From NCBI GenBank assembly GCA_017635595.1, contig JAGBLF010000024.1:4441-68440 (forward strand): 64,000 nt of DNA. The letters run 5' to 3'. This DNA comes from Alphaproteobacteria bacterium. GTDB lineage: Bacteria; Pseudomonadota; Alphaproteobacteria; RF32; CAG-239. A program made the position numbers and the translations under genes. Of the stretch, positions 12,502-23,765 are shown in pieces; within the stretch, counting starts at the first letter, position 1, and each line of letters opens with the position of its first letter. The notes beneath the pieces were generated by a model. The model was not told the DNA's origin. It was given only the letters and a program-made list of their open reading frames with translations, and did not search any database.

Positions 12502-15500
12502 ATGAAATATTCTAAATCTGCTATAGGGCTCTTAACAGCGCAATATCGCAGTGTTTTAAAGAAGTGCTGGCTGATTAACGTCGGCTTGTTCGCTTTAGGC
12601 GCAGCAGCTGCCACACCGGCAAGCGCAGCCGATGCTGGAACATGGACAAAAGCTATAGAAGATACAGATGCATTTATGGACAACTTGGCTTCTACATCAG
12701 GTGGAGCTTGGGATCGTGCTAACGGCAATGTTACCGGCTGGGGTGTTGACCAGATTTTAGGTATTATGGGCGATACCGCAACCAAGACGGATGCCGCAGT
12801 TGCTCTAGTTAATGACACTACTAAAGGTAACGAAGCTCTTTATACTTCTTTGGATGGCAAGCAAGCTAAGTTAACTTCAACTTCAGGCAATGCCGGAAAT
12901 GGTATTTCAATTACAGATACTGGTGTTATTTCTGCTAAAGCCGGTAATACGACAATCACTGTTGATGGTGATGGTATTAAAGTCGGCACAATTGCTCAAA
13001 GCCAAGTTGATGGTTTAGCAACTTCTTTGGCTGGCAAACAAGCTCAGTTGACAAGTGGCTCAGACAATGTTTCCTCAGCTGTTTTGACATCTGTTAGAGA
13101 TTCGAGTTCAGCTGTTGATACTGCACTTGTTTCAGAAAAAGCTGTTGCAACCGCTATTGAAACTGCTACAACTGGTATGGTTACTACAGATGGTACTCAG
13201 ACATTAACCAACAAAACAATTGATGCTGACAGTAACACTATTTCTAACATCGAAACCGATAACTTCAAATCTGGCGTTATTCAAACAACTGTCAGAGCTA
13301 CTGCTTCTGCTTCAGATACTGCTCTTGCTTCTGAAAAAGCTGTTGCAACTGCCTTGGATGGCAAGCAAGCTAAGTTAACTTCAACTTCAGGCAATGCCGG
13401 AGATGGTATTTCAATTACAGATACCGGTGTTATTTCTGCTAAAGCCGGTGATACGACAATCACTGTTGATGGTAATGGTATTAAAGTCGGCACAATTGCT
13501 CAAAGCCAAGTTAATGGTTTATCAGATGCTTTGGATGCTAAAGTAAACAATGCCGATAACTTCACTGCTGCAACAGATTCTGATTTGATTAAAAATAAGA
13601 CTGTTGTTGCCGCTATCAAAGACACAGCTGCTGCTGTTGATGTTAATGCAACTAAAAACACCACTCAAGATACTTCTATAGGTAACTTGTACACTGCAGT
13701 AAACGGCGGTACTTATAATGCTGCTACCGGTGAAGTTACAGGTGCTAGCACATTATCTTCTAACTTTACAACTCCTAACTTAACCGCTGCCGCTAACGAA
13801 CTTTTGACAGACATTACTGTTACCTCGGCCGGCAATTACATTGCTGCCAATGCTAACGTTGCAAGTAACTTAAGTGCTTTGGACGGTCAAGTTAAGAACA
13901 ATACCGATAACATTACTTCTATGGCTGCTTTGGTTGGTACAACTTCGGCTCCGGCAGCAGGTACAGGTATTTTAGCAGGCAAGACCATTACAGGTACTGC
14001 CGGTACAAACAACCTGAATATGGTTGATGCTATTTCTTACGTTGCCGCTAATGGTGCCGGTCTAGGTACTAATAATGTTTATACAGGTACAAATACATAT
14101 GGTAGTACATCCGGTAGCCAAGTTATCATTGATAACGGCGGTAACTTAACAGCTAACACCAGTTTGAAAGTCGGTACATCTACAACCAATATGTTAACAG
14201 TCAGCTCAGCCGGAACAGTTATCGGTGCTGCTAATGCCATCACAGGTACAGCAGGTAGTTTGGATATGGGTGGTAACTCTCTGAGCAATGTTCATGGTTT
14301 AACATTGACGGACGGTACAGGCCACACCAACGATGCAACCATTTCTGTGGATGCTAACGGTATCAGTACCGGCAACAAGACTTTAGATGTCGGTACAGGT
14401 GCTTTGAAGTCTGAAACCTTGTACGTTGGTACAACCGATCAATTCTCGGTTAACGGTGCAGGTAATATCAGCACATCAGGTACGTTGGATGTTACAGGTA
14501 CAGCTACTGTCGGCTCACTTGCCATCGGTACAACCGGTAAAGGCTTTGATGCCAACGGCAACTTAACTGCAGGCACAATATCTGCTACCGGTATCGATAC
14601 AACAACCGCCAACACCGTTAACCTTGGCGGTACAGGCTTTACAACAGCCGTTACCGGTGGTTTGACAGTCAGCGGTGATACAGCATTGTCCGGTAAATTA
14701 AATGTAACCGGTGATACAACTTTAGCTAAAACCGATGTTACAGGTGACTTAACCGTTACCGGTAATACATCTTTGGCTAATACCAGTGTTGCCGGTACTT
14801 TGGATGTAACCGGTAAATCAACATTTGGTAGTGCAACCGGTAGCCGTATTGAACTTGATGGCGGTGCTTTAACCGTTAAAGATTCAACACAAGCTCAAGT
14901 TGCTAAAATCGATAATGACGGAAATGCAAGCTTTAACGGCACTTTAGATGTTGCCGGTTTGGCTTCGCTCGACGGCGGTATCAATGTTAACGATAAGTTC
15001 GCAGTTGACACCAACGGTAAAGTAACCTTGAGCGACGGTACAAATACAGCTACCATCGAAGCGACACAAATCAAAGATTCTGATGGTAACGACATAACCA
15101 ATGTTATGAAAGTTGACGGTACAGGATTGTACACCGGTTATGTTGCTTCCGAATCCGGCTTTACAGTAGCTCAAAAAGATGCTGTTACCGGTTTGTATGA
15201 AGAAACATTCACTGTAAATGAAGACGGCGATATCGAAACTTTAGGCACATTGTCTGTTTCTGACGGTAAATTCGCTGTTGATGGCGATGGTGCTGTCAGA
15301 GCTGCAAACGGTGAGTTTGTAGTTGATAAAGACGGTAATACCAAAATCAAAGGTGCATTAGGTGCCGGTGCTACCGGTACAGAATTCGCTGTCGGTACAA
15401 AAGGTAATATCAAAGCTGCTAATGGTAACTTCACTGTTGATAAGGACGGTAACACAACTGTTGCCGGTACAATGGATATCGAAGGCGATACAACAATCGG

Positions 15501-17073
15501 TAACAAATTTAGCGTAACTGCTGCTGACGGCTCATTCTCTGCTGCCGGCGGTAAATTCACCGTTGACAAAGATGGCGCTATCACTTCAAAGAGCTGGATG
15601 TCGGTTGCTGACGGTAACTTCAAAGTTAACTCTACCGGCGGTTTAACAACCACGAGCTGGATGTCGGTTGCTGACGGTAACTTCAAAGTTAACTCTACCG
15701 GCGGTTTAACAACCACGAGCTGGATGTCTGTTGCTGACGGTAAGATGACAGTTAACAGCGATGGTGCTATTAAAGCTGCTGATGGTAACTTCACGGTTGA
15801 TAAAGATGGTAATGTGACAGCTCAAGGTGACTTGGGTGTACAAGGTACATCTTGGTTGAAAGATACCAATGTTGACGGTGCTTTGTCCGTAACAGGTGAA
15901 TCTTGGTTGAAGAACACCCATGTTGACGGTGCTTTAGCTACAACCGGCGATGCATCTGTTGGCGGTAATTTTGCTGTTACAGGTTCTTCTTGGTTAAGCA
16001 ATACTCACGTTAACGGCGATTTGGAAGTTAGCGGAACAACAAAGACTGGTGCTTTGACCTTCGACGGTTCAAGCTATGTTGCCGCTATGGATCAAGGCGA
16101 TGCCGCTATTACTAACGGTGTTGTTGATGATCAGGCTAAACGTACTATGGCTACCGTTGCTACCGTTGCTAAAACAATCGGTAAATTAGACGACAAAAAT
16201 GCTCATGGCGTAACAGACGTTTCTGATGTTGCTTCGGCTATCTCTACATTGTCTCAAAACGTTGAAACAGCTACCGGTGGTACATTCACTGATGCGGTTT
16301 GGACCGGTGCCGTTGATGCCGATAAAGATGTTGACTATACATACAGCCCGGCTGCAACCGCAACAGCTACTGCCGGATACCATGACATTATGTCTGCCGT
16401 ATCTCAGGTTGCTTCTAACGTCGGTGCTGCAACAACCGTTGCTTTCAACAATGTTGCTGACGACAATACGGTTAATGCCAACATTGATGCATTAAACAGA
16501 AAAGTCGGTAATATGAACAACATCGGCTATGGTTACAAGAACCTGTCGAACGGTACAACAACTCAACCGGATACAGTGGTTGAAGCTTTGCTAAACATTG
16601 ATGCTTCTATGGGCACAATCCACGGCTTGGCTGACAAACTGGAAAAAGCTGGTACTTACCAAGGAAACTTGGCTGAAGGCACAACGGTTGAACAACACTT
16701 AACCGCTTTGGACAGCGCTATCGGTAACCGTGCTAACTTCAACAAGATGCACTATACACAAGGTTCTAAGACCGTTGTGGATGCTATCGGTAAATTGGAT
16801 ACTAAATTGAACAGTGTCGATCATGATGTTCGCACATTGCGTCATAAGTTCCAATCCGGTATGGCATCGGCTGCAGCTTTGTCTGCGTTAGTACCTAACG
16901 CCAGAGCTCATGGCAATACCCAACTTTCTGTTGGTACCGGTATGTACCATGGTCACGGCGCTATGGCCGTCGGTGGTTTCCACTGGTTCACGGATAATAT
17001 ACTCTTCAATACAGGTATTGCTTGGGATGATAACGAAGCAACTTACCGTATGGGTGTAACTTATTCTTGGTAA
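12502..17073 (+). CDS. Trimeric autotransporter adhesin (YadA-like C-terminal anchor), 1523 aa
   Basis: Extended signal peptide; G/T/A/D-rich repetitive passenger; coiled stalk followed by GMASAAALS...LSVGTGMYHGHGAMAVG...YRMGVTYSW anchor; SD aggag. Confidence 0.92.
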   Translation: MKYSKSAIGLLTAQYRSVLKKCWLINVGLFALGAAAATPASAADAGTWTKAIEDTDAFMDNLASTSGGAWDRANGNVTGWGVDQILGIMGDTATKTDAAVALVNDTTKGNEALYTSLDGKQAKLTSTSGNAGNGISITDTGVISAKAGNTTITVDGDGIKVGTIAQSQVDGLATSLAGKQAQLTSGSDNVSSAVLTSVRDSSSAVDTALVSEKAVATAIETATTGMVTTDGTQTLTNKTIDADSNTISNIETDNFKSGVIQTTVRATASASDTALASEKAVATALDGKQAKLTSTSGNAGDGISITDTGVISAKAGDTTITVDGNGIKVGTIAQSQVNGLSDALDAKVNNADNFTAATDSDLIKNKTVVAAIKDTAAAVDVNATKNTTQDTSIGNLYTAVNGGTYNAATGEVTGASTLSSNFTTPNLTAAANELLTDITVTSAGNYIAANANVASNLSALDGQVKNNTDNITSMAALVGTTSAPAAGTGILAGKTITGTAGTNNLNMVDAISYVAANGAGLGTNNVYTGTNTYGSTSGSQVIIDNGGNLTANTSLKVGTSTTNMLTVSSAGTVIGAANAITGTAGSLDMGGNSLSNVHGLTLTDGTGHTNDATISVDANGISTGNKTLDVGTGALKSETLYVGTTDQFSVNGAGNISTSGTLDVTGTATVGSLAIGTTGKGFDANGNLTAGTISATGIDTTTANTVNLGGTGFTTAVTGGLTVSGDTALSGKLNVTGDTTLAKTDVTGDLTVTGNTSLANTSVAGTLDVTGKSTFGSATGSRIELDGGALTVKDSTQAQVAKIDNDGNASFNGTLDVAGLASLDGGINVNDKFAVDTNGKVTLSDGTNTATIEATQIKDSDGNDITNVMKVDGTGLYTGYVASESGFTVAQKDAVTGLYEETFTVNEDGDIETLGTLSVSDGKFAVDGDGAVRAANGEFVVDKDGNTKIKGALGAGATGTEFAVGTKGNIKAANGNFTVDKDGNTTVAGTMDIEGDTTIGNKFSVTAADGSFSAAGGKFTVDKDGAITSKSWMSVADGNFKVNSTGGLTTTSWMSVADGNFKVNSTGGLTTTSWMSVADGKMTVNSDGAIKAADGNFTVDKDGNVTAQGDLGVQGTSWLKDTNVDGALSVTGESWLKNTHVDGALATTGDASVGGNFAVTGSSWLSNTHVNGDLEVSGTTKTGALTFDGSSYVAAMDQGDAAITNGVVDDQAKRTMATVATVAKTIGKLDDKNAHGVTDVSDVASAISTLSQNVETATGGTFTDAVWTGAVDADKDVDYTYSPAATATATAGYHDIMSAVSQVASNVGAATTVAFNNVADDNTVNANIDALNRKVGNMNNIGYGYKNLSNGTTTQPDTVVEALLNIDASMGTIHGLADKLEKAGTYQGNLAEGTTVEQHLTALDSAIGNRANFNKMHYTQGSKTVVDAIGKLDTKLNSVDHDVRTLRHKFQSGMASAAALSALVPNARAHGNTQLSVGTGMYHGHGAMAVGGFHWFTDNILFNTGIAWDDNEATYRMGVTYSW
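12850..13522 (+). repeat. Near-identical ~170-bp direct repeats (12850-13018 and 13354-13522) inside the adhesin
   Basis: LDGKQAKLTSTSGNAG(N/D)GISITDTGVISAKAG...VGTIAQSQV duplicated 504 bp apart. Confidence 0.92.
15591..15743 (+). repeat. 63-bp tandem repeat (two identical copies plus a partial) in the adhesin
   Basis: SWMSVADGNFKVNSTGGLTTT twice, then SWMSVADG. Confidence 0.93.
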
Positions 17074-17083
17074 TAAACTGAAC

Positions 17084-17123
17084 AATAGCTTGGATGCTTA
17101 ACGGCATCCAAGCTATTTTTTTT
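17084..17123 (+). terminator. Rho-independent terminator of the adhesin gene
   Basis: aatagcttggatgc / gcatccaagctatt stem plus T tract. Confidence 0.9.
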
Positions 17124-17135
17124 GTAGAGAGCAAA

Positions 17136-17759
17136 ATGACTGATAAAGCAAATACCAAAACAAAAATTAAAGCAAATACAAAAGAAGAAGCTACTGCTCA
17201 ACCGCAAAAATGCGATGACAAATATTTAAAAATGCTGACAGTGGCTTTGCTTGCCGTCGTTATCGGCAGCGGTTGCGGTTTTTATTATTTTAATCAACAA
17301 CTCAAACAAGCCCAAAACAATGTCGAAAAATTATCGGCAGAACTGCAGAATTCCCAAATCGTCTATATCTATAATTTGGAGGCTGTTGTCGCATCTTCCA
17401 ATTTAGTAATGCTTAAACAAGAGTTTGAAACAAAAATTAATGAGTTAATCAAAGAAGTCGACGATTCACAACAAAAAATCAAAAACATGAAAAATGCAAA
17501 AGTAAAAGACGATTTTTCAGATGTTTATATGAAATCTCTTAAATTAAAACGTGATGAAACAATCAAGGCTTATGATGAAACAATGATACAGGCTACCGAA
17601 AATATTAATCTGGCCTTAAAAGAAGTCGCCCTCGCTAAAGGCGCGAAAACCATTTTCAATGCCAAAGCCATCGCGTTTACTTCAAAATATACGGTCGATA
17701 TTACACCGGAAGTTATAGAACTTGTAAATAAGAAAAACGCATCATTAAAGATGCCGTAA
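17136..17759 (+). CDS. OmpH/Skp-like chaperone
   Basis: N-terminal TM, IYNLEAVV, long coiled coil, C-terminal VDITPEVIELVN; start moved to ATG 17136 because 17094 lies inside the terminator. Confidence 0.6.
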   Translation: MTDKANTKTKIKANTKEEATAQPQKCDDKYLKMLTVALLAVVIGSGCGFYYFNQQLKQAQNNVEKLSAELQNSQIVYIYNLEAVVASSNLVMLKQEFETKINELIKEVDDSQQKIKNMKNAKVKDDFSDVYMKSLKLKRDETIKAYDETMIQATENINLALKEVALAKGAKTIFNAKAIAFTSKYTVDITPEVIELVNKKNASLKMP

Positions 17760-17771
17760 AATAATTACCCC

Positions 17772-17798
17772 AAGGCAAGGAAAACATCCTTGCCTTTT
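17772..17798. terminator. Hairpin terminator between the skp-like gene and the convergent cassette locus
   Basis: aaggcaagga / tccttgcctt stem plus T tract. Confidence 0.75.
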
Positions 17799-17829
17799 CT
17801 ATATCCCTTCCCATTTTTTTAATATATAT

Positions 17830-17959
17830 GAGCTGCCGAAGCCGTAGTTGTTTTCAGGGCTACCCCAAAGTTGGTACCGACTTGCGGATAGTTTTCCGTT
17901 ATGCCTTGATTATTGTAGTTCTGTATGAGTTGATTTTCACGTTCTGCCCGTGCCGTTTG
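17830..17959 (-). pseudogene. Frameshifted remnant of the conserved N-terminal region of 21153..22373 (repeat copy C)
   Basis: Near-identical to 22129-22259 (QTARAERENQLIQNYNNQGITENYPQ...ENNYGFGSS) with a 1-bp deletion and no C-terminal module. Confidence 0.9.
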
Positions 17960-18036
17960 TTAAAATCGGTCGAACGGTAAAATATCGTCTGGAAGACTTG
18001 CAGGCATATGTTTCCGATAACCGTAAAAGCTAAAAC

Positions 18037-18060
18037 AAAGGGAGCATTAATGCTCCCTTT
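18037..18060 (-). terminator. Terminator after the 18071..18646 membrane protein
   Basis: Perfect palindrome aaagggagcattaatgctcccttt. Confidence 0.85.
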
Positions 18061-18070
18061 CTCAATAAAA

Positions 18071-18646
18071 CTACATGATTTCGCGTGTCATTGCTAAGAA
18101 TACCAGTCCGACATAAATCAGCAACATTCCGAAGAATGTCCATATAACTGCACGATTACCTAATAGATAAGTTCCCCCTGCCAACAGAATAATCGGTACA
18201 AAAAATAACAAAATGCCGGCAAAAGACGTATAGCCCATTGTCCAATTTAATGTTCCGTAATCCGTTGCGGTCAGCCACAACAAATATCCCCAGTTTAAGG
18301 CAAACCATGTGCCGACCTCTGCCATACGCCAACTTATCGTCGGATTAAATCCGACAATTTTCCGCCGAATATAATCATATAAGAGGTAGAGCTGAGTATA
18401 CAGAATATATCCGAATAAAAATTCAATTGTATAAACGCATGGATGTCCTCCCCATACCCATTGATATATTTTCCCTTCTTGCCACAAGTAGGGGTCACAA
18501 CTGTCACCTTGTGTGTTTGTTCCTATCATCATCGGATAAAGTCCTACAACTGCCCACGTTATAAACGCAAACCATATTACGGTTAAACTATACCGAATTA
18601 TTTTTTCTTGTTTCCGAAAAAGAACTCCAACAGTTTTTGTTCCCAT
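18071..18646 (-). CDS. Multi-TM membrane protein, candidate immunity protein for the SLT-like module
   Basis: About 5 hydrophobic segments, Cys pair in a loop; SD aggag before ATG 18646; overlaps the upstream gene's 3' end by 49 bp. Confidence 0.6.
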   Translation of the reverse strand: MGTKTVGVLFRKQEKIIRYSLTVIWFAFITWAVVGLYPMMIGTNTQGDSCDPYLWQEGKIYQWVWGGHPCVYTIEFLFGYILYTQLYLLYDYIRRKIVGFNPTISWRMAEVGTWFALNWGYLLWLTATDYGTLNWTMGYTSFAGILLFFVPIILLAGGTYLLGNRAVIWTFFGMLLIYVGLVFLAMTREIM

Positions 18647-19365
18647 TGTTTTTCTCCTAACCAAGGCTTTGTTTCGTATGCAGTTTTTACCCTTGCACCG
18701 ACATCATTGATGTTATTTGCTCCAGTTTCGTTCCATAGTGTTCCAATTCTATCTGGTGTTGGGTTATTCAAAGAATTTTGCATTTGTTTCAAAACTTTTG
18801 TCCCTAATTCAATGTTCTGCTGAGGTATATAGGAATCATAATGTTTTCCGTTAAAATCGCCCCAAGTTTGACCTTGAATATTCATCGGCATTTGACTCCC
18901 TGATGCCCCAATTAAGTCTCCTAGATAATTGAAAACACCTTTATGTCCTGTGGCACCTTCGTTATACATAACCGCACGCACCAAATCCGGATCTATACTA
19001 TTTTGCATAGCATATTTTTCAATATCATTATTATGCTTATATACATAATATTTTCCTAACCAATTCATAGTATACCACGGCCATTCATAGTTAGCATTTT
19101 GACTATCTTGCATATATAAATTTAATTGTTGCCCATTCTTTAGTGCCTGTATACGTTGTGCTTCGGTTAAATAATTATCCCGCCAAGGTACCGGAGTAAC
19201 CTGTTCTGATTGATTATTCCACGGCGTTGAGGTTGTGTACCTCGGTGTTGCCGAAGTGCTCCATGGTGCTGGGGTTTGCGTTTGCAATCCCGATGTTGTG
19301 CCAAAGGAAGAACTTGCACCAAAGCTTGAGTCGCTCCCGAAACGTGCCATATGCCCGGCAATCAT
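18598..19365 (-). CDS. Lysozyme-fold / lytic transglycosylase (SLT)-like domain protein with a low-complexity linker; candidate toxin module
   Basis: IEKYAMQNSIDPDLVRAVMYNE (catalytic Glu helix), QMPMNI, PQQNIELGTKVLKQM; start uncertain (19365 or 19350; ORF open to 19458). Confidence 0.65.
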   Translation of the reverse strand: MIAGHMARFGSDSSFGASSSFGTTSGLQTQTPAPWSTSATPRYTTSTPWNNQSEQVTPVPWRDNYLTEAQRIQALKNGQQLNLYMQDSQNANYEWPWYTMNWLGKYYVYKHNNDIEKYAMQNSIDPDLVRAVMYNEGATGHKGVFNYLGDLIGASGSQMPMNIQGQTWGDFNGKHYDSYIPQQNIELGTKVLKQMQNSLNNPTPDRIGTLWNETGANNINDVGARVKTAYETKPWLGEKQWEQKLLEFFFGNKKK

Positions 19366-19409
19366 ATACCAAAGGTGAAACCTGATACCTTTAATATAAC
19401 CACTAGTAT

Positions 19410-20192
19410 TTAACGAGCCTTGTGTCTGGTATCGCAACTGCGAATATCTTCGAGCCAAATATTATTATTTTTAAGGCAATTTTCCTTCGTTATGGTGCAA
19501 GGTTTACCATCGCCACAATCATTGAAGGTAAAACCCTCTTTGCATATTCCTGTATCTATACAGCCATCTGTGTCATAAGGGTCAAAGTATAAAGAAATTA
19601 TATTGATACTCATACTTAAAATATATATTACAGTTACAATCCATGCGGTATAGTAAAACAAATTACTGATAATCAATTCAAAACACCGAATAGATTTATT
19701 TTTAAACAATTGCATAATTTTACATTGTTCTCTGATTTTTTTTAGAAAGAATACATAAACAAAAAAGGAATCAATGCATATTAACATAAATATGTTTCGG
19801 AGTGAGGAATTGAAATAAAGTAAGCATATTGATAACGCGACAATTATGCAAATAATTATTTTATCAAAATATGTCAGTTTATTCCACCAAACATTATGCT
19901 TTTTATTGTGCATAAAAATCTGGTAATCGCAATAACTTAAAACGCTCAAAAGCGCCACAAAACCTAAAGCTGAACACACAAACCAAATATCGCTATACCC
20001 AAACAAAAATGGCAACAATAAAATGACAGATATCGTCCCGAGAGCAATTGATAAAATATTACAATATTTCTGCTTATTGACACTCCAATGCAATGTCTGC
20101 ACTTGTTGATTGAAATAATGGCAAATACGCATATTACATAAAATAGCGCTAATCAGTACTAAAAATAAAAATACATATAATAAATTTATCAT
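19410..20192 (-). CDS. Multi-TM membrane protein with a Cys-rich C-terminal tail, candidate immunity protein
   Basis: About 6 TMs, very AT-rich, ends DGCIDTGICKEG...CTITKENC...SC; SD gagg; directly downstream of the SAA-like module. Confidence 0.6.
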   Translation of the reverse strand: MINLLYVFLFLVLISAILCNMRICHYFNQQVQTLHWSVNKQKYCNILSIALGTISVILLLPFLFGYSDIWFVCSALGFVALLSVLSYCDYQIFMHNKKHNVWWNKLTYFDKIIICIIVALSICLLYFNSSLRNIFMLICIDSFFVYVFFLKKIREQCKIMQLFKNKSIRCFELIISNLFYYTAWIVTVIYILSMSINIISLYFDPYDTDGCIDTGICKEGFTFNDCGDGKPCTITKENCLKNNNIWLEDIRSCDTRHKAR

Positions 20193-20223
20193 TCTATACC
20201 TCTTTTGTTGCCATCTTTGTCCT

Positions 20224-20251
20224 AGTATAAATACTTTGAATAATAATACAA
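20224..20251 (-). promoter_or_regulatory. Putative sigma70 promoter for 19410..20192
   Basis: TTGTAT-16 bp-TATACT on the minus strand. Confidence 0.5.
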
Positions 20252-20261
20252 GATTAAATAA

Positions 20262-20929
20262 TTATTTTTTATAATACCTAAACCGATCAAGTGGATCATA
20301 TCCTGCCGGACGATATTTATCGCAAGCCTCATAGGCGGAACGATATTGCCCGCTTTGTGCCATTTGTCGTCCGTCTGCATTTACTCGCATGTCATTACGA
20401 AAATCATCATTAGCCTGTTGGAAAGTTTTTCCTTTAAGAAGTACGTTTTTAGGATAGTCAATTAATTCTCTTCCTAAACCGATTGCCCCCGCTGTCGCCG
20501 AGCCCAAAGTTCCTCTTTGCGCTGCATCATAATTTCCGACACAATGATAGTAATTGTCAATGGTGGTACCTTGTTTTTGCATTTCCGGTGTACTTTTGTA
20601 GTTAGCATTTACCATGTTTATATAGTTTTCACCTAAATCTCTTGCTGCTCCAACAATCTGATTTGTAAAACTTTTATCAGATTGAGGTGTATCAGATGTA
20701 CGAACAAAACTTTCAATTGCGGAAGTAAAGGTATTTCTTTTATCGGCACGCAATTCTGGATAACCATATGCAGATTGAGTATTATTCTGTGTCTGCACCG
20801 GTTGTAGTGGTGTCGGTGTTGTATTCATTGCCGGATGATGACTTATCGCATCACTTATATTCGAGCTGCCGAAGCCGTAGTTATTTTCAGGGCTACCCCA
20901 AAAGTTTGTCCCGACTTGCGGGTAGTTTT
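20262..20929 (-). CDS. Orphan cassette: partial conserved N-terminal repeat fused in frame to a serum-amyloid-A-like C-terminal domain
   Basis: Frame is open upstream of Met 20828 (NYPQVGTNFWGSPENNYGFGSSNISDAISHHPAMNTTP); C-terminus GAARDL..NY...DNYYHCVGNYDAAQRG...DMRVNADGR...YRPAG. Confidence 0.75.
20813..20929 (-). repeat. Repeat copy B of the conserved N-terminal segment
   Basis: Near-identical to 22079-22195 (offset 1266 bp). Confidence 0.93.
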
Positions 20930-20974
20930 TATATAACCTAAAGTATATATTTTAAATATTTTTCAATTTATATA

Positions 20975-21002
20975 TTGACTTATACTGAAAAAGTGTTATA
21001 CT
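20975..21002 (+). promoter_or_regulatory. Sigma70 promoter (TTGACT-16 bp-TATACT with extended -10 TG) facing the 3' end of 21153..22373
   Basis: ttgact 20975-20980; tg-t-tatact 20994-21002. Confidence 0.7.
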
Positions 21003-21007
21003 AGAAG

Positions 21008-21140
21008 TACCTTAAGGTATTTCTCTCCAATAGGAACGAAAGATTTTAATCGCCTATTGTCGTATCTTGGATCGTGCTAGACTGTCGATTTAAGGATAGA
21101 GAAAAAGGAAGGAAGCTATTTTTAAGATAGCTTCCTTTTT
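21008..21140 (+). ncRNA. Putative ~130-nt structured small RNA
   Basis: Lies between promoter and terminator, no ORF; stems tttctct/agagaaa, caatagg/cctattg, tatcttggatcg/cgatttaaggata. Confidence 0.5.
21109..21140. terminator. Bidirectional Rho-independent terminator
   Basis: aaggaagctat / atagcttcctt stem flanked by A- and T-tracts. Confidence 0.85.
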
Positions 21141-21152
21141 AGTTTTTAATTA

Positions 21153-22373
21153 TTATTTAAAGTAATACATGGAAGCAACCGTTGAACCTTCTTCCACTGG
21201 AGATGTTACTAACCTTAATGTTCCGTCATAATTACGCACCAAATATACATTTTGCCCAAATTCATTTGATTCAAAAGGTTTTTGTTGAATAATCCTCGGT
21301 ATTTTTTGTGCATCTGCTCGCCCAATACGATGTCTGTATATAAATTTATCCAAGCCATAGTTCTGGACGCTACCGGTTTCTCGTCCTAATGACTTTCCAT
21401 GAACTATTACTTCTCCGTTTGGCCCCTTTATAGCCTCACCGCGTTGAAGAACGACCGGTTCGCCGTTATGATTTCTCATGCGCGCAATAACATCGCGGCC
21501 GTTACCTTGAAACGGATCTGCAGTTAATTTATCGTATGCTTTTCCGATTTTATAACCGTTATAGGCCATATTTGCCTGATTATAGCCGGCATTTGCCAGT
21601 GCACCTCCAGTTAAAGCACTGCCACCATAACCGGCTATTTGACCTGCTGTCTGTGCCAAATTGCGACTTTGCGCATCTTTTAACTGCAAATAATCATTCA
21701 TTTGTGAATCAAACCCGAGTTTGTTACCCAACCAGTCCAATCCGCCAAAGGTCATCCCGTTAACAGTCCTGTTCATACCATAAAGAACATCCATAGCATT
21801 CATCAACATATCATTTTCAACGGCACGTCTCCGTTGTTGTGCCCAAACACCTGTTTGTGGCAAAGAAGCTGATGAAATCTTGTTTATGTCGTTCGGTGTT
21901 GTGTAATTTTGTTGATTAGTCAACGTATTGCTATAATCGTCGTTCCATGTAGGTGTATGACTGCCATCAAAGCTGTTACCTATACCGGACATAAAGCTAC
22001 CGGCAACATTTGCCTGTTCATAATTGTTTATGGCTCGCTGATAATCATCCGATGTCGCTGACATCTGCATAATCGGCATCGGCGTGGTATTCATTGCCGG
22101 ATGATGACTTATCGCATCACTTATATTCGAACTGCCGAAGCCGTAGTTGTTTTCAGGGTTACCCCAAAAGTTGGTAGTATATTGCGGATAGTTTTCCGTT
22201 ATGCCTTGATTATTGTAGTTCTGTATGAGTTGATTTTCACGTTCCGCCCGTGCTGTTTGATACTCTATCTCATCACGAAGCGAAAACTGACTATGGTCAA
22301 CCCCAAACGTATCTATTTTATTGTCCCCCGTTTCATAGCCTAACGGTGATTTATATTTTTTCCATATATCCAT
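21153..22373 (-). CDS. Full-length putative polymorphic toxin: conserved N-terminal domain, linker, Gly-rich helical region and BECR/PBECR-like nuclease C-terminus
   Basis: SD agaggag; part of the N-terminal region is repeated twice downstream; GMTFGGLD...AGYGGSALTGG segment; C-terminal VVLQRG...YGLDKFIYRH...IPRIIQQ...VASMY. Confidence 0.65.
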   Translation of the reverse strand: MDIWKKYKSPLGYETGDNKIDTFGVDHSQFSLRDEIEYQTARAERENQLIQNYNNQGITENYPQYTTNFWGNPENNYGFGSSNISDAISHHPAMNTTPMPIMQMSATSDDYQRAINNYEQANVAGSFMSGIGNSFDGSHTPTWNDDYSNTLTNQQNYTTPNDINKISSASLPQTGVWAQQRRRAVENDMLMNAMDVLYGMNRTVNGMTFGGLDWLGNKLGFDSQMNDYLQLKDAQSRNLAQTAGQIAGYGGSALTGGALANAGYNQANMAYNGYKIGKAYDKLTADPFQGNGRDVIARMRNHNGEPVVLQRGEAIKGPNGEVIVHGKSLGRETGSVQNYGLDKFIYRHRIGRADAQKIPRIIQQKPFESNEFGQNVYLVRNYDGTLRLVTSPVEEGSTVASMYYFK

Positions 22374-22533
22374 TTTTTAACTCCTCTCTTAAAATTTGCT
22401 CATTCATAAGTTTTTTCCTTTTCTAATATTTTAAGTTATTATAAAATGGATACAGATTATTTTGCCTCCTTTCGCCATAAAATCGGTTAATAATACAATT
22501 TCATGCAAATGAATATGCTCCATTTCAAGATAA

Positions 22534-22562
22534 ATGTTATGATTTAAAATAATAATTGTCAA
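22534..22562 (-). promoter_or_regulatory. Putative sigma70 promoter for the cassette locus
   Basis: TTGACA-17 bp-TAACAT on the minus strand. Confidence 0.6.
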
Positions 22563-22812
22563 GTTTAAAAATAAGAAATATACAATAATTATAATTATGA
22601 AAAAGAATAATCTTATTTATGTCATAAAACAATTACTGACTATGATGAGACGATATTTAAGGCTACCAAACATAATAATTCAGCCTTAAAAGAAATCACT
22701 TAGAAAATATGTTATTTTGAGCTAAGCGGCGCATAACCTCGCAAAATTTATTGACGGGTAAGGCGGCTTTTGTTATAAATCATGTCATTATTTCGTATTA
22801 GGGAGACCGCTG

Positions 22813-23241
22813 ATGAAAGATTTTACATTTGCTGAAATTAAAGATGCCTGTCAGGCTATTGCTGATAAAATTAAATCGGAGAATCCGAGCAAAATCACGA
22901 TAGCGGCGGTATCACGCGGCGGGCTGATTCCGGCCACCATGACAGCTCATTTGTTAGGTATTAAGGACATTCGTTTTATCCGTCTTTCTTCTTATGCCAG
23001 TGATAAGCAACAATCCGAGATTCTCGATACAACGCTCGATGAAATTCCGAATGACCCGACAACTTATATTATAGACGATATCTGTGACAGCGGCGAAACC
23101 TTATTGTATTTGCGTCATAAATATCCGGCGACTAAAATTTATACCGTTATCAATAAAAATCAGTCCATAGTTCCGGATTTTGCGCCGATTACCGAACCGG
23201 CAGGGTTGTGGATTAACTTTCCGTGGGAAGTCGTTGAGTAA
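22813..23241 (+). CDS. Purine (xanthine/guanine-type) phosphoribosyltransferase
   Basis: AVSRGGLIPA, IIDDICDSGET PRPP-binding loop, WINFPWE. Confidence 0.88.
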   Translation: MKDFTFAEIKDACQAIADKIKSENPSKITIAAVSRGGLIPATMTAHLLGIKDIRFIRLSSYASDKQQSEILDTTLDEIPNDPTTYIIDDICDSGETLLYLRHKYPATKIYTVINKNQSIVPDFAPITEPAGLWINFPWEVVE

Positions 23242-23246
23242 TTCCC

Positions 23247-23765
23247 CTATTTTTTAAGCTTTTCCAAAACGGCAAACGGATTATCTTTTTTAATCGGTTC
23301 GACTTCGGCATATTGCGAAAAATCAAAAACCTCCCCTTCGGCACGCGGATAATCGTCTAAATTCAGCGCAATCTGTTCAATGGCTATATCGGCCAAATTA
23401 ATCCGTCCGTTTTCGATAATATCCGGAACATCGTCATTAATGCCGGCTTCCATATCCTTAATATCCTGATACGTTGCCTTGGTATCAAACATTAATTCAA
23501 ACGGCACATCAAAATCTTTTACAAAATTTTCCAAACTGATAACGCTTTTGAGCTCTATTTTGGCGGCAACATTTCCCCATACCTTCATTAAATGCTCTTT
23601 AATATTGAGTTTCAAGAAAATTTCGGCCTTAAACATTTTAACATTTTCAACCTGCAAAACAGCCGTTATATCCTTAAGTTCATCGGCATCGGCATTGAGC
23701 TCGAATTTGTACCGGTTCTGATTTAATTCATCTATTTTGATAGGATATGAAAAAATTTTTTGCAT
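23247..23765 (-). CDS. DUF177/YceD family protein
   Basis: SVISLE, INLADIAIEQIALNLDDYPR, NPFAVLEKLK; divergent from bamE as in alphaproteobacteria. Confidence 0.88.
   Translation of the reverse strand: MQKIFSYPIKIDELNQNRYKFELNADADELKDITAVLQVENVKMFKAEIFLKLNIKEHLMKVWGNVAAKIELKSVISLENFVKDFDVPFELMFDTKATYQDIKDMEAGINDDVPDIIENGRINLADIAIEQIALNLDDYPRAEGEVFDFSQYAEVEPIKKDNPFAVLEKLKK

Follow-up and report, generated by a model that had tools for sequence, protein, structure and literature searches.

A 64,000-nt stretch of the Alphaproteobacteria bacterium contig JAGBLF010000024.1 (the window), which belongs to a genome of 1.5 Mb assembled into 32 contigs at 96.2% completeness (G000), holds a 4.9-kb island whose genes appear to form an array of toxin and immunity modules (Table 1). 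All open reading frames (ORFs) of the island lie on the minus strand, on which the order is a promoter-like site with a leader, a gene for a 406-aa protein, a hairpin, a cassette encoding a prok-SAA domain followed by the gene of a putative partner with six transmembrane segments, an SLT-like (lytic-transglycosylase-like) cassette followed by that of a putative partner with three, and a stub. The promoter precedes the full gene only, and the hairpin stands immediately behind that gene. The parts are tied together by the coding region of the first 89 residues of the 406-aa protein, here called N1, the 3′ part of which recurs in the island. Altogether there are three copies of this block, with 89-94% identity across 47-117 nt: 20813-20929 is 89% identical to 22079-22195, 17863-17962 is 91% identical to 22163-22262, and a 47-nt core is present in all three copies (17823-17869, 20856-20902 and 22122-22168) at 91-94% identity. 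In a three-way alignment the SAA orphan and the full gene have '...ENYPQ' to '...PAMNTTP' in common, and the end stub shares 'QTARAERE...GFGSS' but is short of one T, and is therefore frameshifted. An earlier reading made from the letters alone (the sequence-only reading) had described a near-identical block at 20813-20929 and a frameshifted remnant at 17830-17959; repeats, frames and alignment agree that this description is accurate, and the missing T confirms the frameshift. The ORF of the SAA cassette opens inside the N1 block and runs in an unbroken frame into the SAA C-terminus, with the start codon of the head absent. We read the island as one promoter-driven full gene with 5′-truncated, apparently spare modules behind it, each with a small membrane-protein gene.

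Table 1 Features of the island (window coordinates)
Feature	Coordinates	Strand	Details and basis
Whole island, putative toxin/immunity array	17797..22720	-	Between OmpH-like gene and phosphoribosyltransferase (PRT) gene; 4.9 kb
Diverged partial copy of the 3′ part of the OmpH-like gene	22621..22697	+	77 nt, 74%; repeat D8 and alignment with G138; marks the right edge of the island
Promoter-like site TTGACA-17-TAACAT	22534..22562	-	Top score of the region, 10 of 12
Conserved 5′ leader	22374..22533	-	160 nt, GGAG Shine-Dalgarno sequence 9 nt before ATG; by-eye upstream alignment
Full gene, 406 aa	21153..22373	-	N1 head, low-complexity linker, 'mid' Gly-rich helical region, C-terminal RelE/BECR-like domain; ORF, AlphaFold2 (AF2) model, fold search
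N1 head domain, aa 1-89	22107..22373	-	22 invariant columns in 61 sequences; AF2 model
Homology block of the full gene	22079..22262	-	3′ part of N1 plus 'AISHHPAMNTTP'; common to orphan and stub
'Mid' region, aa 170-265	21579..21866	-	Motif NG-M-T-x-GG-LDWLG and Gly-rich stretch; motif search, homologues
C-terminal domain, aa 270-406	21156..21566	-	Last ~70 aa with RelE/BrnT/CdiA-CT-like fold; AF2 model, VIA-align
Terminator-like hairpin directly 3′ of the full gene	21109..21137	-	Hairpin scan
Orphan cassette 1, prok-SAA/Lipocone	20262..20951	-	5′-truncated N1 block (20813-20936) in frame with prok-SAA/Lipocone domain (~20334-20672); stop-to-stop ORF, Pfam
260-aa membrane protein (mem260), candidate SAA immunity	19410..20192	-	Six hydrophobic segments, Cys-rich tail; hydropathy, Cys count
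Orphan cassette 2, SLT-like	18598..19458	-	286 aa, without its own N1 block; Pfam, match to P0007
197-aa membrane protein (mem197), candidate SLT-like immunity	18071..18664	-	Three hydrophobic segments; hydropathy
Terminator-like hairpin after the last candidate immunity gene	18037..18060	-	Hairpin scan
End stub	17823..17962	-	N1 residues ~39-84, 1-nt deletion, no C-terminal module behind; repeats, frames, alignment

The N1 head defines a family. Residues 1-100 of the 406-aa protein are matched at E<=0.001 by 413 out of 428 candidates of 223-711 aa, and the best 120 N1 proteins have the same start of ~88 residues and then diverge, with nine Pfam families found behind the head; a constant N-terminus with unrelated C-termini, proposed by the sequence-only reading as a check on itself, is indeed what the family displays. 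A profile of 61 heads retrieved 271 proteins from 1.84 billion representatives, 200 of them at E<=1e-10, and among the 150 of these matches listed, with protein lengths of 60-740 aa, matches to the start of the profile begin in the first 25 residues, with one exception (residue 52). In GTDB species genomes, 252 out of 310 pattern matches were confirmed and 80 loci were kept, nearly all from uncultured Alphaproteobacteria or organisms labelled 'proteobacterium' of the human gut, the rumen and horse faeces (three records are otherwise labelled). In a sample of the order to which the window belongs, N1 is present in 78 out of 201 genomes and 6 out of 22 genera, with 1-20 matches in each genome and 11 in G000. 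The head had been called unrecognised, and it stays so: residues 1-89 have no match in Pfam, NCBIfam or PHROGs, and no RHS/YD, two-partner secretion (TPS) and FHA, MafB, LXG or PAAR model was found in the 406-aa protein (Pfam, NCBIfam) or among the families of the 120 homologues. A search of the ESM Atlas with residues 1-98 gave a best score of 0.77, which is chance level. Folded alone, N1 reached a mean pLDDT of 55.7, too poor for a fold search with the isolated domain; in the full-length AF2 model, residues 11-70 have a pLDDT of 76-84, with short strands and a helix at 32-55, and residues 71-90 are low. The invariant residues of N1 include D34, E35, Y38, Q39, R42 and E46, which in this model would lie on one face of the helix, and the 3′ part of N1, with its many aromatic, Gly and Asn residues, is predicted to be disordered.

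Behind this head the tails vary widely. Among the best 120 N1 proteins, Pfam assigns SAA to 14, GH108 to 13, Tlde1 to 10, Pesticin to 8, PG_binding_3 to 6, VgrG3-like C to 4, and YkuD, SLT and PG_binding_1 to one each, and at least 62 of the 120 are without a Pfam domain. N1 proteins are built of a constant head of ~88 aa, a low-complexity linker and interchangeable C-terminal modules. Furthermore, the middle and tail of the 406-aa protein also occur behind three other N-termini, N2, N3 and N4. The N2 head has 81 homologues, with Tlde1, SAA, GH108, VgrG3-like C and GH46 tails, and profile-profile comparison found no similarity between N1 and N2 (probability 0.3%). N1 is thus one of at least four interchangeable head classes that share a pool of tails. 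None of the N1-N4 heads was found described in the literature searched, including the available part of PMC12419801, whose supplements could list N1-SAA proteins. In G000, the last ~40 codons of an N3-class protein of 222 aa are duplicated on contig C10 (L005, 95-260 and 1607-1740), the duplicate lying just upstream of the next N1 gene and behind a pair of Tlde1 and immunity genes, which points to another recombination block, situated at the 3′ end of N3 genes. On contig C25 (L007, 2291-2740), a 'mini' protein of 150 aa has the N1 core only ('FGV.H..FSLRDEIEY') and a segment rich in Gly like that of the 'mid' region, with a 192-aa membrane protein behind it.

The same modules are found as tails of full-length N1 proteins in other strains. 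The SLT-like orphan of the window has 96% identity over 245 aa with residues 164-408 of P0007 (L022), which is 408 aa long and has an N1 head, and 80% identity with the tail of P0165. Moreover, a 3873-nt contig of a public run from another study (X6, bovine gut) contains 18234-19343 with 13 differences (98.8% identity) and, after 186 other letters, continues with 22079-22274 with 39 differences (~80% over the head); because it joins 19343 to 22079, the SLT-like cassette is directly behind an N1 head in that organism, and the cassette is far more alike between that organism and the strain of the window than the head is. The proposal that cassettes recombine onto the full gene is thus supported, with the contig and the P0007 tail representing the switched form in nature. 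The layout itself also recurs. Across the 80 loci, the N1 profile found 96 full and 28 5′-truncated blocks, with at least two blocks on the same strand in 28 out of the 80; truncations are clustered around positions 60-65, 45 and 32 of the profile, and stubs close several other arrays, as in the window. The variable small genes downstream, which encode membrane proteins or lipoproteins behind N1 genes, had been expected by the sequence-only reading, and both they and the arrays are found in other species. In a run of a different study (X4, contigs only), both orphan cassettes are covered (18234-20837) and the tail of the 406-aa gene (20999-21882) is uncovered, which suggests a strain bearing another expressed tail. 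A joint from 17178 to 20162 in runs X1 and X3 was disregarded, one of its sides being 21 AT-rich letters, and no RNA data are listed among the public runs covering the stretch.

Paralogous loci are also found in G000 itself, on contigs C2, C7, C31, C9, C10 and C25. C2 has a copy of the 406-aa gene (72% identical) and a stub, adjoining rpoC. C31 has a gene with the same mid region and a different extreme C-terminus, and then an orphan with the C-terminus of the window type, joined at a second homology point, 'GGSALTGGAL...'. On C7 and C9, N1 carries a tail of the pesticin/lysozyme-like kind, accompanied by a lipoprotein gene in convergent orientation, and on C10 a Tlde1 protein has a different head.

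The two orphan cassettes differ in how readily they can be named and paired. The first matches Pfam SAA (E 9.6e-13, 48.9 bits, cut-off 30.8) and animal SAA chains in the PDB (E 3e-5), and its translation contains 'NADGR', which is the N-x-x-G-R motif given for the SAA-Wnt clade in the main text of PMC12419801. There, prok-SAA is presented as a member of the Lipocone superfamily and a toxin tip of polymorphic toxins, predicted to attack the head groups of lipid carriers, with immunity partners that are transmembrane, lipoprotein or Cys-stabilised (PMC12419801). The 260-aa protein, whose gene has a promoter-like site ahead of it (20290-20261) and which has seven Cys among its last 60 residues, suits these types, and its pairing with the SAA cassette is plausible from the sequence. 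The cassette thus resembles the Lipocone tips in its SAA match, its motif and its transmembrane, Cys-rich candidate partner; the trafficking heads that its available part names for prok-SAA are VirD4-binding, PAAR, WXG/LXG, T9SS, MuF, cystatin-like, GbpC and TPM, and N1 is not among them (PMC12419801). For the second cassette, a PDB sequence search gave no match, and homologues of mem197 (~40% identity) stand behind SLT-like modules at three other loci (L070, L047 and L079). Two claims of the sequence-only reading therefore hold in part. That the modules share an N-terminal block is correct for the SAA cassette and the stub, but in the SLT-like cassette this N1 block has been lost; and a partner gene for each toxin is supported for the SLT-like module by the mem197 homologues and plausible for SAA, whereas the 406-aa gene is without an adjacent immunity gene.

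The 406-aa protein itself has no match in Pfam, NCBIfam or PHROGs, and a signal peptide was not seen in it. Its residues 170-406 have 75 homologues, and its tail has no sequence match in the PDB (alignment A3) or Pfam. In a fold search with the model of the tail, 19 of the 20 top rows are RelE/ParE/HigB/YoeB-type or CdiA-CT toxins, and VIA-align gives Z 6.6 for BrnT (root-mean-square deviation 3.0, 65 residues aligned), 6.2 for CdiA-CT, 5.8 for RelE and 4.3 for colicin D. H302, R311, E313, K343, H348 and Y377 are invariant in tails of this type, and these His, Lys, Arg, Glu and Tyr residues are compatible with an RNase. The 'mid' region in front of the tail is common to proteins with differing extreme C-termini; its motif is found in 4 of the 120 N1 proteins, and Pfam assigns no peptidoglycan-type domain to any of these four. 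On this basis we infer that 'mid' may allow tails with a cytoplasmic site of action to enter through the inner membrane.

Upstream of the 406-aa gene, the number of promoter-like sites in the region equals the expectation from shuffling, so support for the promoter comes from its conservation: in a by-eye alignment, paralogues on C7, C25 and C2 have the TTGACA and ~190 nt behind it conserved in their upstream regions. Together with the GGAG ahead of the ATG, this agrees with the promoter and Shine-Dalgarno sequence that had been noticed earlier. The ~190 nt of promoter and leader are common to four N1 genes of G000 (window 22374-22562, C7:52026-52215, C25:60-250 and C2:1-82), and the leader, which holds short upstream frames initiated by ATG, could be regulatory or could simply reflect recent duplication. 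An Rfam scan of 17000-23300 returned a sub-threshold chance match only, leaving the leader without a family, and a pattern search of the four upstream regions found no direct repeats resembling a LexA box.

We consider it quite probable that N1 and its tails constitute a lineage-specific polymorphic system of predicted antibacterial toxins and immunity proteins, a judgement that leaves aside the route of delivery. As a possible mechanism, N1 would be a trafficking module, allowing exit from the producer without a Sec signal and entry into the periplasm of related neighbours. Most tails would act there, on peptidoglycan (GH108, pesticin-like, Tlde1/YkuD, VgrG3-C-like and SLT-like) or, in the case of prok-SAA/Lipocone tails, on lipid-linked precursors, and RNase-like tails of the 406-aa type would carry the additional Gly-rich 'mid' region for crossing the inner membrane. 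Homologous recombination at the 3′ part of N1 would swap the expressed tail, with the old tail or a stub staying downstream. The system resembles Rhs, CdiA and MafB in its constant N-terminus, variable C-terminal toxin and small cognate gene downstream, and also in its silent 5′-truncated cassettes with a common homology block and in exchange between strains, as far as those systems are described in the available part of PMC3482391. However, unlike them, N1 proteins are short (~225-460 aa), have no partner transporter gene, no signal peptide and no RHS/YD, FHA, PAAR, LXG or MafB head; the homology block lies inside the ~88-aa head; and at least four unrelated heads draw on one tail pool.

Several points weigh against this interpretation. 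The match of the SLT-like cassette to Pfam SLT (E 3.3e-4, 20.6 bits) is just below the cut-off of 21.3; the fold match of the 406-aa tail is modest (Z < 8) and covers only ~70 residues; no adjacent or conserved immunity gene was found for the 406-aa type in the window, on C2 and C31 or at nine other loci; and the order of cassettes over the repeats is not bridged by independent contigs. For a toxin that resembles an RNase, the missing immunity gene is unexpected, and it leaves three explanations: an erroneous RNase reading, a full-length protein without activity in the cell that makes it, or an immunity gene at some other site. As for the order of cassettes, the Logan contigs of the public run that best holds the stretch break exactly at the N1 blocks, and therefore the order across the repeats rests on the original assembly. 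These breaks, along with the position of several paralogous loci at contig ends, are what would be expected if the assembly had been misled by repeats of ~120 nt into linking fragments from separate loci or strains. Such an artefact is nevertheless very improbable, since one Logan contig (record 5, 20856-21465) runs from inside the orphan's block through the spacer to the 3′ end of the 406-aa gene, the frame from the block into the SAA module is unbroken, and the same architecture is found in 28 out of 80 independent loci. It is likewise very improbable that these proteins are wall-remodelling enzymes of the cell itself, with a common anchoring head and with orphans that are decaying duplicates. 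The many peptidoglycan-enzyme tails and the absence of signal peptides would suit such enzymes; against them stand the variable membrane partner of each module, a patchy and strain-variable presence with up to 20 matches per genome, a cassette with 98.8% identity between strains that have no more than ~80% identity in their heads, and the absence of the island in the closest relative. Moreover, Tlde1, pesticin-like, VgrG3-C-like and prok-SAA domains are known as antibacterial effectors (PMC12419801).

The delivery route of this predicted toxin system was weighed separately. Clustering of 1163 neighbouring ORFs from the 80 loci shows no secretion-system gene recurring beside N1, which extends to these loci what had been said of the island, that secretion genes are not adjacent. 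The sole recurrent neighbour other than immunity genes is a protein of ~152 aa, whose gene precedes the first N1 gene by ~100 bp, in the same orientation, in 19 out of 80 loci (for example L055:9111-9884 and L010:6231-6686). It has no Pfam family and no homologue in G000, and 8 of its 20 copies are 198-258 aa long; the one copy scanned (L055, 258 aa) has a weak N-terminal helix-turn-helix (HTH) match below Pfam cut-offs. This protein may be a regulator or an adaptor. G000 has no match to TssC, Phage_sheath_1, FHIPEP (FlhA), TonB_C or two Pfam relaxase families, and a Peptidase_C39 match that might have indicated a peptidase-containing ABC transporter (PCAT) was rejected as an exporter, being a standalone secreted protein of 270 aa.

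What the genome does contain is a scattered VirB/VirD4 type IV secretion system (T4SS), with VirB2 (two copies), VirB3, VirB4 and VirD4 on C13 and VirB10 on C7, the latter flanked by ORFs that can be called VirB6-like, B8, B7, B8, B9 and B11 by size and order only. Upstream of virD4, C13:22376-27472 encodes four further, unassigned proteins. The scattered layout of the system resembles the rvh systems of Rickettsiales. The islet on C7 (55765-71949) includes the gene of a 1405-aa protein whose C-terminus is that of VirB10 (TrbI), beside it a 1728-aa ORF, and an apparently duplicated VirB8, and on C13 (86099-96305), divergent from virB2-virB4, there is an apparent operon, judged by eye, for a type IVb pilus or a system like the type II secretion system, with an ATPase, a platform protein and two secretin-sized lipoproteins. 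An N1-lysozyme gene on C7 that is 3.7 kb from virB11 was set aside as chance proximity, with rnpA-yidD-yidC-engB-like genes (named by eye) between them.

We tentatively favour the conserved VirB/VirD4 T4SS of the order as the route. In the bacteria-killing T4SS of Xanthomonadales, the partners (X-Tfi) of the effectors (X-Tfe) are periplasmic lipoproteins or membrane proteins, and to our knowledge X-Tfe genes are not arranged as cassette arrays. Their recognition domain, XVIPCD, is C-terminal, whereas the only conserved region of the N1 family is N-terminal. The two resemble each other in having a chromosomal VirB/VirD4 system and scattered genes for peptidoglycan enzymes that act in the periplasm, and killing through a T4SS, with a C-terminal signal, is established in Xanthomonadales (available parts of PMC6536674 and PMC8740702) and has been proposed, as directed at congeners, for basal Rickettsiales (available part of PMC11077975). 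Within the order of the window, VirB4 is single-copy in 197 out of 201 genomes, and therefore the T4SS is a core trait and its co-occurrence with N1, in 78 of the 201, says nothing. The last 10 residues of N1 proteins have a mean charge of +1.84, versus -0.09 per 10 aa within tails (100 distinct tails), and a C-terminal charge of +2 or more is found in 30 out of 62 coarse tail groups versus 26% of 914 background ORFs. A positively charged C-terminal signal for T4SS is known from the Agrobacterium literature, and the charged C-terminal tails are a weak hint at a signal of this type. Against the T4SS route, the proteins counted in the charge statistic are related to one another; T4SS genes are never recurrent neighbours in the 80 loci; the system is near-universal while N1 is in 78 of the 201 genomes; known T4SS signals are C-terminal; and one machine would have to recognise four unrelated heads.

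A different route, which we consider rather doubtful, would be that of diffusible bacteriocins resembling colicins and pesticin, released by lysis or leakage and imported by heads that serve as receptor or translocation modules across the outer membrane of the target. Colicins, pyocins and pesticin have an N-terminal part for uptake and a C-terminal part for killing and shuffle heads and tails, and immunity to those acting on the envelope is membrane-bound or periplasmic. In agreement with this, the head of N1 proteins is N-terminal and the toxin C-terminal, unrelated heads are shuffled over one set of tails in the fashion of pyocins, and a pesticin-like lysozyme and a fold like that of colicin D are among the tails; there is neither a signal peptide nor a recurrent secretion-gene neighbour, and the disordered, aromatic-, Gly- and Asn-rich 3′ part of N1, the small HTH-bearing protein upstream at 19 of the 80 loci and the TolB encoded in G000 would also fit. 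Yet the island has no lysis gene, no receptor-binding domain is evident in the family, and no Pfam colicin or pyocin domain is found in the 406-aa protein or the 120 homologues. The family has arrays of truncated cassettes, unlike colicins and pyocins, and such orphan arrays are characteristic of systems that depend on contact; this route would also leave the positive charge of the C-terminal tails unexplained. The absence of TonB_C from the genome excludes only Ton-dependent import. With a Tol box in mind, N1 (A2) was cofolded with TolB (A4, residues 21-439); the score of 0.00, obtained without controls, is evidence neither way.

Some other or new route is possible, although we hold it with slightly less conviction than the T4SS. 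One form of it, in which the four classes of head would serve to connect the toxins to vesicles or to a new apparatus for export or contact, appears somewhat unlikely to us. It would account for heads that match nothing known and for a family confined to one poorly studied order, in whose genome G000 the tested markers of type VI secretion (T6SS), contractile sheaths, the type III secretion system and PCAT were not found. Regarding T6SS effectors in particular, Tlde1 (PF10908) and the VgrG3 C-terminal domain (PF21277) are the same enzymatic tails as those behind N1 and N2; unlike T6SS effectors, however, N1 and N2 proteins have no PAAR, VgrG or MIX-type part, and G000 has no TssC or contractile sheath. 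Nevertheless, this is an argument from absence, in a genome that is 96% complete in 32 contigs and has a T4SS and an operon like that of a type IV pilus. The sequence-only reading had suggested that the delivery route may be undescribed; given that the genome encodes a conserved T4SS, we regard this as no more than one of the possible readings. That N1-N4 are either recognition modules of an antibacterial T4SS core to the order or belong to a wholly new delivery route is, in our view, close to an even call.

Comparison of the site identifies the island as an insertion. In the closest relative (G138, locus L121), whose flanking genes have 93-95% protein identity with those of the window, the PRT gene directly follows the OmpH-like gene, and the island is absent from the syntenic site; synteny returns at ~22720 in the alignment. 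G138 is the sole comparison for the insertion, because at the 12 remaining loci retrieved from the genus the flanking genes do not adjoin each other. The GC content is 0.29-0.40 in the island, 0.41-0.47 in the left flank and 0.33-0.44 in the right flank, so the claim that the island is AT-richer than its flanks is true for the left flank but only partly for the right. Just left of the island (12502-17073), an ORF of 1523 aa contains numerous internal repeats, and its C-terminal segment resembles the anchor of a trimeric autotransporter. Elsewhere in G000, the yceD/bamE-like region of the window recurs at C24:1269-2255 with 70% DNA identity, a level usual between species in the genus; this copy represents either a paralogous region or a foreign contig that was binned with G000 but comes from a different species.

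Bacteria separate kin from rivals largely by way of polymorphic toxins, and the known classes are each tied to a trafficking domain and a machine. Here, an order of abundant uncultured Alphaproteobacteria of gut and rumen, with genomes of ~1.5 Mb, carries up to ~20 copies of a family of predicted toxins. If the T4SS is indeed the route, these would be the first polymorphic toxins delivered by a T4SS that have cassette arrays and N-terminal targeting, possibly in addition to a charged C-terminal tail. Knowledge of what the heads bind would extend T4SS killing beyond Xanthomonadales, with a signal of a new kind, or add a new module for bacteriocin import, or reveal a new route. In any of these cases, the family offers many uncharacterised tails, natural pairs of toxins and immunity proteins predicted to act in the envelope, and a possible module for entry through the inner membrane.

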